A stretch of DNA of 64,000 nt. Origin: Eledone cirrhosa. Lineage: Eukaryota. The notes beneath the pieces are model-generated. The model was given only the letters and a program-made list of their open reading frames with translations, was not told the origin of the DNA and searched no databases. Made by a program: the position numbers and the translations under genes. Every line of letters begins with the position of its first letter. The first letter of the stretch is position 1. The stretch is from positions 14,198,001 to 14,262,000 of the forward strand of contig OZ024746.1 in the NCBI GenBank assembly GCA_964016885.1, read 5' to 3'. Positions 12,347-41,489 of this stretch are shown piece after piece.

Positions 12347-12963
12347 ACACAAACATGCATGCACCCATATATGCATAGATATAAAAAAGCGTAATTCCAA
12401 TAAGATCATATAATGGATCTTTGCTCACACGAAAATGTATTTACCGATACATGAATGCTTTTATATATGGTGTGTATACGCAACTAAATTGTGTTGTATC
12501 CCCATACATCTGTATTTAAATGGTAATATATGCATGGCATGCGCTCTTCCTCTCACGGAGCGAAGCCTATCACTGTATGCATTTTGCAGATCAGCGGTTA
12601 CAATCATTGAAAGCAAATAACCTGTGTACAAGTATAATAAATTCGATGAATCCTAAAATGAATACAGAAAAATTTGCTGACTCGGGTCTAATTATTTACA
12701 TGTGCTTGAATCTGTGCATATCCAATATTAAATAACATAAAATTAAGATTTAAATGTTCTTCATATTAAAGCACACAGGTCCTTTCACAAAACCATACAT
12801 ACTCCTTACATGTCCTTACCCGATATTTATAAGATACTTTAGGGGAACTGACTGTAATTGTTGTTATTTACTGCGCTTGAACATCCTACATCTATGAATC
12901 TATATATATATATATATATTCTTACATAGTCTTATGTGCTAATGGTATGTATATATATATATA

Positions 12964-13228
12964 TATTTATTAAAATAACAGATTAAAGTTTAAGCAAAGA
13001 ATCGCTGCTTTCACCCTTAACGGGATCTTCTGAAACTAGCAAAGTCAATCTGTAAACGCATTGACTTTGCTAGTTTCAGAAGATCCCGTTAAGGGTGAAA
13101 GCAGCGATTCTTTGCTTAAACTTTAATCTGTTATTTTAATAAATATTTGCTCTACGGTTCTTATATATTTGATATATATTTATCCTTATCGAGCCCTCTT
13201 TGGATTTTAGTCTTCAAATTTATTATTA

Positions 13229-15809: not shown

Positions 15810-16866
<1,057 letters not shown>

Positions 16867-19105: not shown

Positions 19106-19240
19106 AAACTCAGTATTAGAAAAGACAAATGAACCTTACATAAACGTATATATAGTAATAAAGTAATAAGGCAACATAAGGCAATTATTCCATTCACCAG
19201 AGGTTTCTTAAAAGCAAAAAATATATATATATATATATAT

Positions 19241-20460
<1,220 letters not shown>

Positions 20461-23843: not shown

Positions 23844-24245
23844 CCAAGCAAAAATAATGTTCAATATTCATTGTTCAGTGTTCACATTATGTTTTTGATT
23901 CTATAGAAATTATTGTTGTAAATAAAAATGCGGTTCTCTTATAGAAGTTGTGTGGTTTATTAAGAAAACTTAATATTTCTTAAGTTGTTCATGTTATTTC
24001 AGGAATTTTTCAAATTAACTATTGGTAAATTTGATTCAGAATGTTTTTAAACATTGCTGGGGTTGCCTGGATGTGTCCACATAAATTTCTCTAAGAAGAA
24101 AAAAGAAAATGGTCGAGATAAGGAACAGTATACCGCTTTTGAACTGAATTAATCGTTGCGTATACTATGTTCCAACTTCAAGGCGTTTCAGGTTCGCCTA
24201 AAAGTTGCCCGATTTATCTGAAATTTTGCAGACCCCGTGTTTTTG

Positions 24246-24565
24246 TCGGCTGTGCGAATGATCTAGGCATCGTCTCTATGTGTTGGTATTTTAACGATAG
24301 TTATAGCTCTGGTTAATCCAAACTATTGAGCCCTCTGCCACACATGTCGAAGATTGTTTATCATTATTTCGTGGGCCGAGATTCTGATTCTCGATTATTT
24401 ACTTATATATATATAATCGAGAATCAGAATCTCGGCCCACGAAATAATGATAAACAATCTTCGACATGTGTGGCAGAGGGCTCAATAGTTTGGATGAACC
24501 AGAGCTATAACTATCGTTAAAATACCAACACATAGAGACGATGCCTAGATCATTCGCACAGCCGA
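24246..24565. repeat. Near-perfect palindrome (~150 bp arms) centred on a putative HHR stem II
   Basis: The central hairpin GTGGGCCGAGA...TCTCGGCCCAC is followed directly by GAAA-TAATGA-TA (24441-24452). Confidence 0.7.
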
Positions 24566-24841
24566 AAAAAAACGACCTGGAAAATTCGGGTCACTCAAAT
24601 AATAAACTAATAAATTAATAAATTAAATGAATGTAAAAACTCACCCGGACCCGCTAGAAGGATGTTAAATTCTAGCTGTTTGGGTTTCTGCAGTTTCTTA
24701 ATCAATTACTGTCAGTCCACATAAAAAATATATCTGACTATATATATATATATATTTAATAAAGGAAATAAAACAAACGCAGGGATGCAAAAATGCACAG
24801 TTATATTAGATTCACGCTTATATATATTATAAAGATTCGGG

Positions 24842-29772: not shown

Positions 29773-29775
<3 letters not shown>

Positions 29776-29968
29776 CGGAGGAGTTGTGGTAAGGAACAAG
29801 ATGGACCATAACGCACCAGAGTACTCAATACTTAGGGTAGTAGAGTGGGTAATAGGAAAAAGTATGACCCCTACGGCAGAGCTCAAGCCGTTTCGACGGC
29901 TATTTCTGGACCAGAAATAGCCGACGAAACGGCTTGAGCTCTGCCGTCGGGGTCATACTTTTACCTAT
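29773..29968. mobile_element. Family A fold-back centred on HHR stem II
   Basis: Centre GACGGCTATTTCTGG-A-CCAGAAATAGCCGAC then GAAA-CGGC-TTGAGCTCT-GCCG-TC-GGGG. Confidence 0.8.
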
Positions 29969-30942: not shown

Positions 30943-31239
30943 AATCGAGGTCAGTGTTGCAACATATGTACCTAACTTTATTGATTGGCATATTACAATT
31001 CGTTCGATATCGATCAGCTCAAGGTTCAATCATAATGACCGGGACCCAACTCTTCTTCCACATCTAATCAGATATCGATATCGAAACAATTGTAATATGC
31101 CAATAAAGTTTGTATATATGCTGCAGCACTGACCTCGATTCAGCTTAATCTATTTACACTCAGCACAATACAGCCGCCTTAACTCTGAAATATAACTCAA
31201 CACGAGACGGACCTCGTAACCGTATTAACTGCTTCCAAG

Positions 31240-33368: not shown

Positions 33369-33573
33369 ACGAAGGAAGTGTGGTAAGGAACCAGGTGGAC
33401 TATAACGCACCAAAGTACTCAATACTTGGGGTAGTAGAGTGGGTAATAGGAATCAGTAAGACCCCGACGGCTGAGCTCAAGCCGTTTCGACGGCTAATTT
33501 GGACGGCTAATTATGACCAGAATTAGCCGTCGAAACGGCTTGAGCTCAGCCGTCGGGGTCTTACTGGTTCCTA
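33367..33573. mobile_element. Family A fold-back centred on HHR stem II
   Basis: GAAA-CGGCT-TGAGCTC-AGCCG-TC at 33532-33554 with an inverted copy upstream. Confidence 0.8.
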
Positions 33574-33851
33574 TATATATATATATATACTCCTGAAAAA
33601 TGTCTTCAGCAGTTTCACTGTTTCTGTCTATATAAATTGTTATATTGAAAACCGGTGCCCGTTTTGTCGTGACGCCTGCCAACAGATTTTGAGACACCCA
33701 GACAAAAGAATAGGGTATATATATATATATATATATATATAGTATGTAAGTTTGTATTTTACAAGAAAGATGAAAAGGATTCGATAGCAACGTATAACAT
33801 ATGTATTTATCATATTATATCGAATAATATAATATCGAATAATATAAAACT

Positions 33852-34038
33852 GGTGGGAAATGGCAGTATCGGTAGAGCGTCGGACGCCATGCTTTCCAGC
33901 ATAGTTACGTCCCTTTACGATCTGAGTTCAAATCCCGTCGAGTTTAACTTTGCCTTTCATCCTTACGGGGTCGATAAAATAAAGTACCAGTAATGCACTG
34001 GATAATTGCTGGCCTTGTGCCAATAGTAGAAACAATTA
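33852..34038 (+). mobile_element. Deu/Nin SINE, full length
   Basis: A/B boxes, body, tail; TSD-like ATTATATCGAATAAT. Confidence 0.9.
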
Positions 34039-34232
34039 TATCGAATAATCTCTGTTGGTATTCTGGCTTGAGTGGACACCAAACAATCACGCGTAATAAC
34101 AGAGTTGACTCTCAATAGTACACACACACACACACAGAGACACACAGAGACACACAGAGACACACACACACATACACGCACACACACATACACGCACACA
34201 CCACACACACATACACACACATATATATATAT

Positions 34233-34448
34233 ATAGTTACAACAGTGACATAAACAGGTACTTAAGTTTCGTTAGTTTCTGGCCCCCAACTCATTTAGTG
34301 TTTTTCTTATGACAGGCTGAATGGGTTGGAGGCAGGAAGCCAACGAAACTTAAGTACCTGCTTATGTCACTCTTGTAACTATTTATTTTCAACTCATCCT
34401 ATGGACTGAGTGCTCTTACTCTTGGATATTTCTACCAACCTTGTACTA

Positions 34449-34452
<4 letters not shown>
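34233..34452 (+). mobile_element. Fold-back element centred on HHR stem II, with 3' tail into (TA)n
   Basis: Inner G-U-rich stem 34271-34344, GAAA-CTTAAG-TA at 34345-34356, outer arms near identical. Confidence 0.8.
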
Positions 34453-34525
<73 letters not shown>

Positions 34526-36014
34526 CTTGTGTGTATATATGTATGTATATATATGTATGTGTGTATATATATATATATATATGTGTGTATGTGTGTGTGT
34601 GTTCGTGTGTGTGTGTGTACGTGTGTATGTGTGTTTTTATATACACACATATGTAGTGAGAGATAGATAGCTAGATGTAGAGACTGAGAGAAAGGAAGAG
34701 ATATAAAGAGAAGCGAGAGTTATGTGTACCAATATAATATTCAACTTCTAACCTATATTCTGCAGCAATGTACCAACATACTAGAATATTACCCATTGTT
34801 TAAGATATGATACAAATAACATTCTAGAATAAACTTTTCATGATTTCATGATAGCAAATTATCTGTCAGTTGATCATGCAAATATCTATTTCTTCATACA
34901 TGCCAAATAATATAATATTGTTTCAGTTATGATTCTACAACTTGAATCTTGAAGGCAATCTGATGGTGTTCTTTTATATTAGGACTGCATTTAATGCCTC
35001 CTGTTTATTGATAGATGTTCTAAAGTAATTCAGCGCAAAAGAGTCATGTTATTTGTTAAAATCTTTGTTACAATTTTACAAATGTAATGATATTTCATGT
35101 GAGAATTCACATATATTATTAATGGAAAATTCGAGTTTCCATGAAATGTATCAAACTTTTATGTAAAAGTTGCTTTAAATGTAGTCTATGGTGCGTTATC
35201 CTGTTTGGTTGTAAACAAGATGAAATGAGTTTCGCAGATATAGCTGATGATATTTGTGTTGTGTGCAGCTGTCATTTATTTGAAAACTGAAAATCTCGTA
35301 TAGAATAAATCATTAATGTGTGTGCAGTGGAGCAGAAATATTGTCATGAGAAGAGTCAGTAAGGTTATACTACATAAATGCACAATTATATGTGTATGAT
35401 AGTTAAATGGAAAACAATACAAGTTACACGGAATAGAAATCAAATTTGCTAGTGGATATTTCTCTATGATGTCTTAAATTGAGTAAAAGTTCTTTGGTTC
35501 TGTGGCTATAACAATTTGGGGTGTATTGATAAATGAGTTCTGAACATCGGAAAATCAATTTTATGAACTAAATAAATTATTTATACGGGGTAAGGAGTTT
35601 TCTTCTTACAACACACATATATGTATATACATAGATATATACACATATATATTTATACATATATCTTTTACACACACACATATATATATATGGTTGTGGA
35701 ACCAACCAACCAACGGGAAATTTATAAATTCCTAAATTTATAAATTTAATTTATAATAAATTGAAGTGAAAGAAACTGGTGCGTGTGTTTCTTATTGGCA
35801 ACATGACCCTCCCAAAGTATAACAATATCGGTTTTAACACACGTTTTCAGATAAAGAATCTTTGTTATACTTTGGGAGGGTCATGTTGCCAATAAGAAAC
35901 ACACGCACCAGTTTCTTTCACTTCAATTTATTATAAATTAAATTTATAAATTTAGGAATTTATAAATTTCCCGTTGGTTGGTTGGTTCCACAACCAGACG
36001 ATTGTTCGTATATT

Positions 36015-36057
36015 GTCAAAGTTCTTTCGTCACACATTCTGTGACCTCGTCAGTGAC
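36015..36057 (-). ncRNA. Minimal type I hammerhead
   Basis: Minus strand: GTCA-CTGACGA-GGTCACAGAATGTGTGAC-GAAA-GAAC-TT-TGAC. Confidence 0.8.
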
Positions 36058-36463
36058 TGGGGATTCTTTTCTTTGTTTTTGTGCCTCTCCTTTGTTCTGG
36101 CCTACGCCATCTTGTTTTTGTGTGTGCTGTGTGCTTAGTTTGCGCATGTATTACATCCGGGTGTCTGGGTGTGTTTATATTTGTTTCTTTATTTGTTTAT
36201 TTACATGTTACTGATTGGTTGTTTGTTCTATGTGTGTGTGCGTTTTCATTTTGTCCTTAATTGTAAGTTGTGATGTTGCTATTCCATTCATGCTTTCTAT
36301 TTAATTTTGGTTGGAGTTCATTTATGTTTATTGCTTCTGTGATTTGTCTAAACATTGTATCTTTTCTGTGTGTAGATGCAAACTAAGCACACAACACACA
36401 CAAAAATAAGATGGCGTAGGCCAGAACAAAGGAGAGGCACAAAAACAAAGAAAAGAATCCCCA

Positions 36464-36506
36464 GTCACTGAAGAGGTCACAGAATGTGTGACGAAAGAAC
36501 TTTGAC
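36464..36506 (+). ncRNA. Minimal type I hammerhead
   Basis: GTCA-CTGAAGA-GGTCACAGAATGTGTGAC-GAAA-GAAC-TT-TGAC. Confidence 0.8.
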
Positions 36507-36665
36507 AATATACGAACAATCGTCTGGTTGTGGAACCAACCAACCAACGGGAAATTTATAAATTCCTAAATTTATAAATTTAATTTATAATAAATTGAAG
36601 TGAAAGCAACTGGTGCGTGTGTTTCTTATTGGCAACATGACCCTCCCAAAGTATAACAATATATA

Positions 36666-37238: not shown

Positions 37239-37294
37239 ACTGCCTGATGAGGTCATAGCCATTCAATGGCTATCATCGAAATATATATAGCAGT
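37239..37294 (+). ncRNA. Minimal type I hammerhead, canonical core
   Basis: ACTGC-CTGATGA-GGTCATAGCCAT TCA ATGGCTATCATC-GAAA-TATATA-TA-GCAGT, then AATAAA. Confidence 0.85.
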
Positions 37295-37405: not shown

Positions 37406-37412
<7 letters not shown>

Positions 37413-37876
37413 GTTAGAATATGTGTAATAAGGCCAAGACAATGCAGATATGGACATAGAAAAAAGAATGCAATAGTGAGAGATATTGATGAGAATTCGT
37501 CTTTCACCTTGAATTTATTTAAATGTCCTTAATTTTCGAGATAATATCTCTTCTTCAGAGGGAAGTAAAAGTCTCAGACCAGCGTCTTAAATTTCCAATG
37601 AAGCCATGCTGACCGGAAATAGTATTTCCGGTCAGCATGGCTTCATTGGAAATTTAAGACGCTGGTCTGAGACTTTTACTTCCCTCTGAAGAAGAGATAT
37701 TATCTCGAAAATTAAGGACATTTAAATAAATTCAAGGTGAAAGACGAATTCTCATCAATATCTCTCACTATTGCATTCTTTTTTCTATGTCCATATCTGC
37801 ATTGTCTTGGCCTTATTACACATATTCTAACGTTTATACCTCATTACACAATGCTTCAAGTGAACTATAACCTCCT

Positions 37877-37880: not shown

Positions 37881-38352
<472 letters not shown>

Positions 38353-41019: not shown

Positions 41020-41394
41020 TAATTATAGGTAAGATGCTTCCATAGGCGGTATGGCGGTTGAGCACTCTATGTTCCGACGGAGCAGAGTATTATAGGATGG
41101 AAAACGAAAAATCAGTGATGCATCGGAACTCGATTTATTGTGTGTTACAATTGTTTCCACGGCTAACAGCTCGAGGTGTGATCTGTGTGTGGATCGACCT
41201 GACTCTAGAGTCGCAGGTTCCTCGGACACGTCTATTGATTTCGGAGTATATCCTCTTTAGACGTGTCCGATGATCTGCGATTCTAGAGTCAGGTCGATCC
41301 ACACACAGATCACACCTCGAGCTGTTAGCCGGGGAAACAATTGTAACACATAATAAATTTAGTTCCGATGCATCACTCATTTTTCGTTTTCCAT

Positions 41395-41395
<1 letters not shown>
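41020..41395. mobile_element. Family E palindromic element with an HHR in each arm
   Basis: Arms about 41098-41233 and 41259-41393; terminus 41020-41075 related to 20655-20715. Confidence 0.8.
41263..41349 (+). ncRNA. Hammerhead with CCGATGA core and long stem II
   Basis: GTGT-CCGATGA-60 nt-GAAA-CAATTG-TA-ACAC then AATAAA; mirror 41142-41229 has CCGAGGA. Confidence 0.7.

Positions 41396-41489
<94 letters not shown>

Follow-up and report, generated by a model that had tools for sequence, protein, structure and literature searches.

The closest described systems are the EN+ Penelope-like elements (PLEs). Their insertions comprise 5'-truncated copies, partial tandems and an adjacent inverted 5'-truncated copy, with an optional one-sided tail, (TA)n targets and a hammerhead in the pseudo-LTR, and the mechanism by which they insert is called undefined (PMC8557442, Craig et al. 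2021; PMC2377424, Schostak et al. 2008; statements on these two accounts, as on PMC3846280 and PMC4209133, refer throughout to the excerpts of their text that were available). Penelope itself carries an internal Inr/DPE promoter (PMC2377424), and its head-to-head repeats, whose junctions contain palindromes, have been read as products of self-priming in an account that uses an antisense template, involves no ribozyme stem in the available excerpts, and describes Inr-like motifs in pseudo-LTRs (PMC3846280, Arkhipova et al. 2013). The minimal hammerheads of PLEs are of type I, with a palindromic stem III, a long stem II and a U3-A8 core variant, and pairs of them on opposite strands lie 100-700 bp apart (PMC4209133, Cervera and de la Pena 2014). 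For PAc (Poseidon of Anolis), work in vitro showed that both strands are nicked and extended, that two reverse transcription start sites bound the tail, with no strand difference in their use, and that uncleaved RNA is the template of a protein predicted to be a dimer; the second-strand and junction steps are left open in that study, which contains no mapping of inversion points (PMC11167929, Frangieh et al. 2024).

The window analysed here is a stretch of 64,000 nucleotides from the 3.0-Gb, microsatellite-rich genome of Eledone cirrhosa, and its features are collected in the table below. The repeats of interest, assigned to families A to D, show the same architecture as EN+ PLEs, with inverted truncated copies, tandems, a tail, (TA)n and a hammerhead in the pseudo-LTR. 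Unlike in the available excerpts of PMC8557442 and PMC2377424, a fixed inversion point and a rule of one tail per pair were found, and the tail of family B is about 83 nt long, compared with 30-40 in those accounts. The first-pass annotation had described a palindrome at 34233-34382, which is real, as the window sequence from 34193 to 34422 is predicted to fold into one long hairpin; its outer arms, said to carry two mismatches, differ at 2 of the 34 bases compared. The inner arms had been taken for a wobbly, RNA-like stem II. They are instead a decayed inverted copy at the DNA level, near-perfect in the family A copies L002, L009, L014 and L027, and at the main site they differ at 7/27 or 8/29 compared bases. 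Five of the eight differences are A/G changes that give G-U pairs on the plus strand, and the other three comprise two transitions that give G-U only on the minus strand and one transversion. In 14 of 19 family A pairs, the inner arms diverge by 17.7% and the outer arms by 8.6%, the remaining five having been dropped for more than 12 inner differences, mostly register shifts; the contrast is therefore family-wide, and the window site is a stronger case of it.

The CUGANGA box and the 5' strand of stem I, reported as missing from the main site, are both present in its right arm. The core box there has one extra base, and for this reason the ribozyme was overlooked and a strict CUGANGA descriptor scan missed the site as well. 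This extra base occurs in most family A copies, with a canonical box in one subfamily, and sets them apart from the PLE minimal hammerheads as described in the available text of PMC4209133. A search with the right arm gave 55 matches from the 40 scored of 1,109 candidates, and a tight pattern gave 350. By eye, 24 of 30 pattern-anchored family A arms keep the box and stem I, and 47 of 60 box-bearing arms have their end within the T-rich tract that precedes the ribozyme or immediately 3' of that tract (a mixed and partly biased sample). (TA)n adjoins the outer side of the minus arm. The T-rich tract at 34300-34317, as in other family A copies, ends in an AG inside the 5' strand of stem I and resembles a splice acceptor, a feature of a kind reported for D. 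virilis Penelope (PMC4209133). The motifs of families A to D are candidate hammerheads placed in the pseudo-LTR as in PLEs, on the strength of descriptor-level matches. Scans with Rfam returned hairpin and microsatellite noise, with no hammerhead among the matches listed for the window (150 of 154) or among 93 matches at seven loci.

Table. Features of the window, with positions counted from its first base.
Feature	Position	Strand	Remarks
Family D pair	15826..15913		natural stem II and loop kept; box replaced by inverted arm
Tail-to-tail pair of another repeat around central (TA)n	24240..24571		no ribozyme geometry seen
Family B head-to-head stub	29775..29967		1-nt spacer at centre; tail on minus arm
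Family C pair	30948..31135		canonical hammerhead complete but decayed on minus arm; box at about 31063-31071
Family B head-to-head stub in (TA)n	33369..33576		tail-bearing arm minus, tail-less arm plus; ribozyme 5' half absent
Tail-less inverted arm, family A	34233..34299	-	reverse complement of element 3' end; decayed core box, without stem I 5' strand
Junction and palindrome centre	34300..34310		T-rich tract 5' of ribozyme
Whole type I hammerhead-like motif, family A	34311..34362	+	candidate ribozyme, read from sequence; conserved in copies
Stem I 5' strand	34311-34316	+	part of main-site hammerhead-like motif
Core box	34317-34324	+	CUGANGA with 1 extra base; G in place of final A (A9) in this copy
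Stem II	34325-34329 with 34340-34344	+	short hairpin 34325-34344; real stem II of main-site motif
GAAA	34345-34348	+	main-site hammerhead-like motif
Palindromic stem III	34349-34354	+	main-site hammerhead-like motif
UH; stem I 3' strand	34355-34356; 34357-34362	+	main-site hammerhead-like motif
Family A 3' end and one-sided tail, then (TA)n	34363..34451	+	tail from about 34385
Family B head-to-head stub	37909..38090		tail on plus arm; internal deletion in minus arm

A 24-mer of family B has 52,348 exact matches. EN+ PLEs have a single ORF that combines a reverse transcriptase with a C-terminal GIY-YIG endonuclease. A full unit at locus L186 contains an open frame of 786 aa in which RT-type (YRDD) and IY..YIG/CCHH-type endonuclease motifs were recognized by eye; the frame gave no Pfam family at E<=0.01 and no match to a solved structure at E<=1. 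The tail sequence continues into the ORF in 323 places, some of them in tandem arrays, and partial tandems or pseudo-LTR arrays occur with a period of about 3.5 kb. An adjacent inverted 5'-truncated copy with a one-sided tail is present, as are a Cys-rich linker and (TA)n flanks, features that the available text of PMC8557442 gives for the Neptune and Nematis clades, in which the linker lies between RT and EN. On these sequence features, family B is a Penelope-like element, probably of Neptune or Nematis type, and the earlier assignment of the elements as Penelope-like termini is borne out by the pseudo-LTRs and one-sided tails. Tandem full-length family B units were also observed at L264-L267 (C1, about 91.476-91.488 Mb), with a period of about 3,542 bp, and the L186 unit lacks about 430 bp of the 3' region. 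Uninverted family B copies carry a hammerhead with a U3-A8 core, in which stem II is bulged and the loop measures about 45 nt. The core variant is shared with the PLE minimal hammerheads, but the start proposed below for family B would split the ribozyme, unlike anything in the available text of PMC4209133. The expectation that uninverted copies keep stem I and CUGANGA 5' of the stem held for the 5' half, which 4,261 matches retain, with the U3-A8 variant as the core. A CUGANGA directly before the apparent stem of family B was rejected as the true core, as its 111 matches arose mostly by chance at junctions. The box of family C is canonical, with 311 intact matches when one mismatch is allowed. 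Forty random 10-kb stretches contained only seven family B arms, in five stretches, and sampling was therefore anchored on patterns.

The same geometry had been claimed for six further sites in the window. All of them are inverted repeats, but the geometry as described is found only at 15850. Nor do they represent unrelated families, since the sites at 29895, 33489 and 37927 all belong to family B. At these three the 5' half of the ribozyme is indeed absent, and what looks like stem II pairs the 3' strand with its own inverted DNA copy and not with the natural 5' strand; the pair around 33489 has its centre in the 3' part of loop II and a templated duplication at the junction. The plus arm of the family C pair begins in the 3' strand of stem II. 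Family D has six matches, namely an intact ribozyme (L382), the site at 15850, and four copies that begin in the 5' strand of stem II and in which no inverted partner was seen. Several other repeats lie nearby. The family of the tail-to-tail pair at 24240-24571 (L367-L381) consists of young, near-identical copies whose end lies next to (TA)n, in some cases after a short extension. At 37239-37294 on the plus strand, in another repeat flanked by (TA)n, the sequence matches the canonical type I hammerhead descriptor, with a CUGAUGA box and a palindromic, AU-rich stem III. A nested inverted structure at 35691-36659, with arms of 135 and 282 nt that are 99-100% complementary, is likely a recent, re-inverted insertion from another Penelope-like family. 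Further long inverted pairs that adjoin (TA)n, at 37406-37838 (216-nt perfect arms, 1-nt spacer), 16148-16808, 19237-19728, 41094-41397 and 12963-13146, are probably head-to-head stubs of other families. A tRNA-like short repeat at 33850-34010, with a similar copy in L056, is presumably a SINE.

Four features were observed directly: the identity of the elements, an architecture with a single tail, a fixed stop that is specific to each family, and microhomology and templated inserts at the junctions. The reading that we consider rather probable is that the palindromes are head-to-head, 5'-truncated PLE ends in (TA)n, in which the centre would mark the capped 5' end of the RNA and two cDNAs would have been joined. 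The endonuclease would nick both strands of (TA)n; one nick would prime at the far tail end of the RNA, and the other would prime the same RNA at an internal start site, 83 nt upstream in family B. Synthesis of both cDNAs would end at the Initiator-like A with which the RNA begins, often with a C added opposite the cap, and the 3' ends of the two cDNAs would then be trimmed and joined by microhomology. In family B the RNA start would lie inside loop II, and the stubs would lose the 5' half of the ribozyme as a by-product, while in families A and C it would lie about 25-35 nt 5' of the ribozyme, which would survive. In L1 twin priming, two target-strand primers likewise act on one RNA and the ends are joined by microhomology. 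The two arms of an L1 twin-primed insertion copy different parts of the RNA, whereas here a single 60-nt stretch is copied in both arms, which share one end point. The strand-specific start sites proposed here also differ from the absence of strand preference for PAc in vitro (PMC11167929).

The two arms of a pair are coupled, as indicated by the single tail and the shared subfamily. Among 91 pairs, 85 joined a tail to (TA)n, five a tail to another sequence and one two tails, and none was tail-less on both sides, so that 90 of 91 have exactly one tail; both arms belonged to the same subfamily in 51 of 53 pairs, against a random expectation of 0.32 (these samples, and the 71 junctions scored for spacers, include loci picked by junction-containing queries). 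The discordant pairs are L169 and L198. Such coupling would also be explained, tail and subfamily together, by a single cDNA that runs to the fixed stop and then primes a second arm from its own 3' end, by pairing with chance microhomology located a few bases further in and not with stem II; the second arm would end at an internal TA-like site. Many junctions have spacers of 3-6 nt with short templated inserts, fitting a local snap-back of the cDNA end; spacers of 4-6 nt and templated inverted inserts agree with such a fold-back, for which self-priming as proposed in PMC3846280 is a precedent. However, a copy made in this way cannot exceed its template. Of 69 rows, 19 (17 insertions) have a tail-less arm that extends 5' beyond its partner by 10 nt or more, and only five show the reverse. 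Spacers of 0-2 unpaired bases are also common (36 of 71 in a biased sample, and 14 of the first 22 loci listed, by eye), and the arms of L169 and L198 are of different subfamilies. We therefore regard folding back of a single cDNA as unlikely. Two primers on one RNA fit the coupling, the longer tail-less arms, the 0-2-nt spacers and the discordant pairs alike, and agree with the nicking and extension of both strands and with the two start sites bounding the tail of PAc in vitro (PMC11167929). In contrast to the antisense template in the available text of PMC3846280, the arm lengths and spacers, together with the extra G described below, favour two sense-template cDNAs that end at the RNA start. 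The templated inserts suggest joining by microhomology, with a brief local snap-back as a possible minor step. The central base was found in both orientations, which also speaks against simple fold-back. Homopolymer A/T runs were noted at the junctions of L314, L327, L330, L340, L158 and L061, which suggests untemplated A tailing of cDNA ends.

The point at which the arms stop was mapped in 101 family B arms from the first 15.5 Mb of C1, taking the first base of the 3' strand of stem II as position 0. The proposal that the cDNA stops near the catalytic core was confirmed, as 82 of the arms end at 0 to -17, with modes at -9 to -11 and -4 to -7; sixteen of the 101 seem to reach -13 to -17, which counts against the capped-start reading. 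Two more stop at -27 and -48, and the remaining 17 run past the whole ribozyme, most of the 16 distinct ones that were mapped continuing over hundreds to thousands of bases. Family B has its stop in loop II, families A and C upstream of the ribozyme. The A at -10 of family B falls in a match to TCAKTY, the Drosophila Initiator consensus. Reverse transcriptase copies a cap as an extra C, and an extra G, absent from the element, precedes the A at -10 in 1,275 family B cases genome-wide, against 469 with an A, a raw count in which some Gs can be templated from the partner arm. Among 100 rows listed, the excess was 84 to 16 (by eye, some loci counted twice), and inspection of 30 loci of each kind showed the extra base to be untemplated at 18 of those with G and 15 of those with A. 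Family C has an Initiator-like A about 35 nt upstream of the box; of the 15 arms extending that far, 10 have their end at this A and two more within 6 nt of it, with no clear excess of G before the stop (G 4, A 3, C 3). The boundary of family A is diffuse and lacks a clear Initiator. Five head-to-tail concatemers (L255, L256/257, L258, L259 and L261) restart at -7 to -13 without inversion, which makes the stop independent of inversion; their acceptor ends lie at about +190 to +245 in four and at +949 in one. Across L255-L283, concatemer acceptor ends concentrate between about +180 and +245, a position that may correspond to the 3' terminus of an abundant short RNA, and the restart of L280 coincides with the ribozyme cut site. 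In family B, starts at that cut site were not in excess, with 49 arms compared with 92 for a site 3 nt away, although this control is inflated by a subfamily variant.

Judged from these positions, the stop is likely the capped 5' end of the RNA, in keeping with the internal promoter of Penelope (PMC2377424). Two primers could also meet an internal barrier, such as a U-rich tract, a splice-acceptor-like site, a bound protein or a processing cut, and we hold this to be slightly less probable than the folding back of a single cDNA. In families A and B the stop coincides with a T-rich tract that ends in AG, where a weak rU:dA hybrid would form, and family A arms end at various points along that tract. 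ORF-long copies also pass the stop site: of 17 copies with ORF to the end of the fetched stretch, 14 (four of them in one tandem array) retain the complete ribozyme upstream and not one has its start at -10, so that the capped-start model needs a second, read-through RNA or homologous strand transfer. Against a barrier stand the excess of extra G, the stop of family C at an Initiator-like A without a long U tract, and the rarity of ends in the 30 nt beyond the stop (2 of 19 arms). Nor does any constant exon-like sequence precede the stop, and splicing at the AG was rejected on the same observation.

Mobilization of a few palindromic master copies, transcribed whole as non-autonomous elements, would account for the junction sequences that recur at many loci, but junctions are highly varied within each subfamily, the geometry recurs across subfamilies and partner arms are cut at many positions, and this origin is very improbable. 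The mechanism put forward by the first-pass annotation, in which the cDNA snaps back on stem II and primes the second strand so that the ribozyme fold sets the inversion point, is refuted as a general rule. It predicts a product in which loop II is retained whole and its natural 5' side is joined to the inverted arm. In family B, 12,869 palindromes have their centres within the final ~15 nt of loop II, in its 3' part, against none for a reversed control pattern, and this product occurs at a single locus; in family C it was found at none, against the 311 intact copies (one mismatch allowed). The main site lacks it as well. In families A and C the ribozyme is intact and the centre is found 5' of it, the box being kept in the family A arms counted above and in 23 of 30 family C arms. 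The clustering of centres in the stem II/loop II region is real in family B, but stem II is not its cause, and the predicted destruction of the ribozyme in the copy applies to most family B stubs and not to families A and C. The geometry at 15850 and the one family B locus agree with snap-back on stem II, but the stop of the other family D copies falls in the 5' strand of stem II anyway, so that at 15850 stem II may only lend microhomology. The probability left to this mechanism is lower still than that of master copies. It had also been presented as undescribed; self-priming had already been proposed for PLE junction palindromes (PMC3846280), while its placement at stem II was not found in the available text. 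Assembly or amplification fold-back, which perfect young palindromes resemble, deserves almost no credence, since the arms differ in length, tail and point changes, the symmetry ends at (TA)n, raw short reads from three independent runs (which carry the same species label and contain up to 76% of the words sampled, but may come from another species than the assembly) contain opposite-strand joints at L186:3545-3562, in the 3' part of loop II, and a 76-nt short-read contig equals 34253-34328 with 0 differences, though with only 29 bases to the right of 34299 it is a borderline bridge. A pile of read ends at L186:3556 is probably a RAD restriction cut and was excluded as evidence.

The element type and architecture are thus known, and the reading of the insertion mechanism as two joined cDNAs appears to be new. 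PLE inversion points at stem II or at a transcription start, and the one-tail rule, were not found in the literature searched, which lay outside subscription papers, and the supplements of PMC11167929 and PMC4209133 may hold junction or core-variant data that bear on this novelty. How the tandem and inverted ends of PLEs form is described as an open question in PMC11167929 and in the available text of PMC8557442. More tentatively, and with somewhat less than even confidence, a PLE dimer would nick both strands and start a cDNA at each tail end, both running off the cap, and in family B a capped RNA of about 200-250 nt starting in loop II would template most of the tens of thousands of insertions; the palindrome centres would then be a fossil map of transcription starts, and the tandem and inverted forms would come from one process. 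The tens of thousands of young stubs yield rules that are testable in the existing in vitro system, namely one tail per pair, the same template, a fixed stop and an extra G. If this reading is true, junctions would reveal the start sites of PLEs from genome sequence alone, and the loss of the ribozyme in stubs would be a by-product of promoter position and not of the fold.
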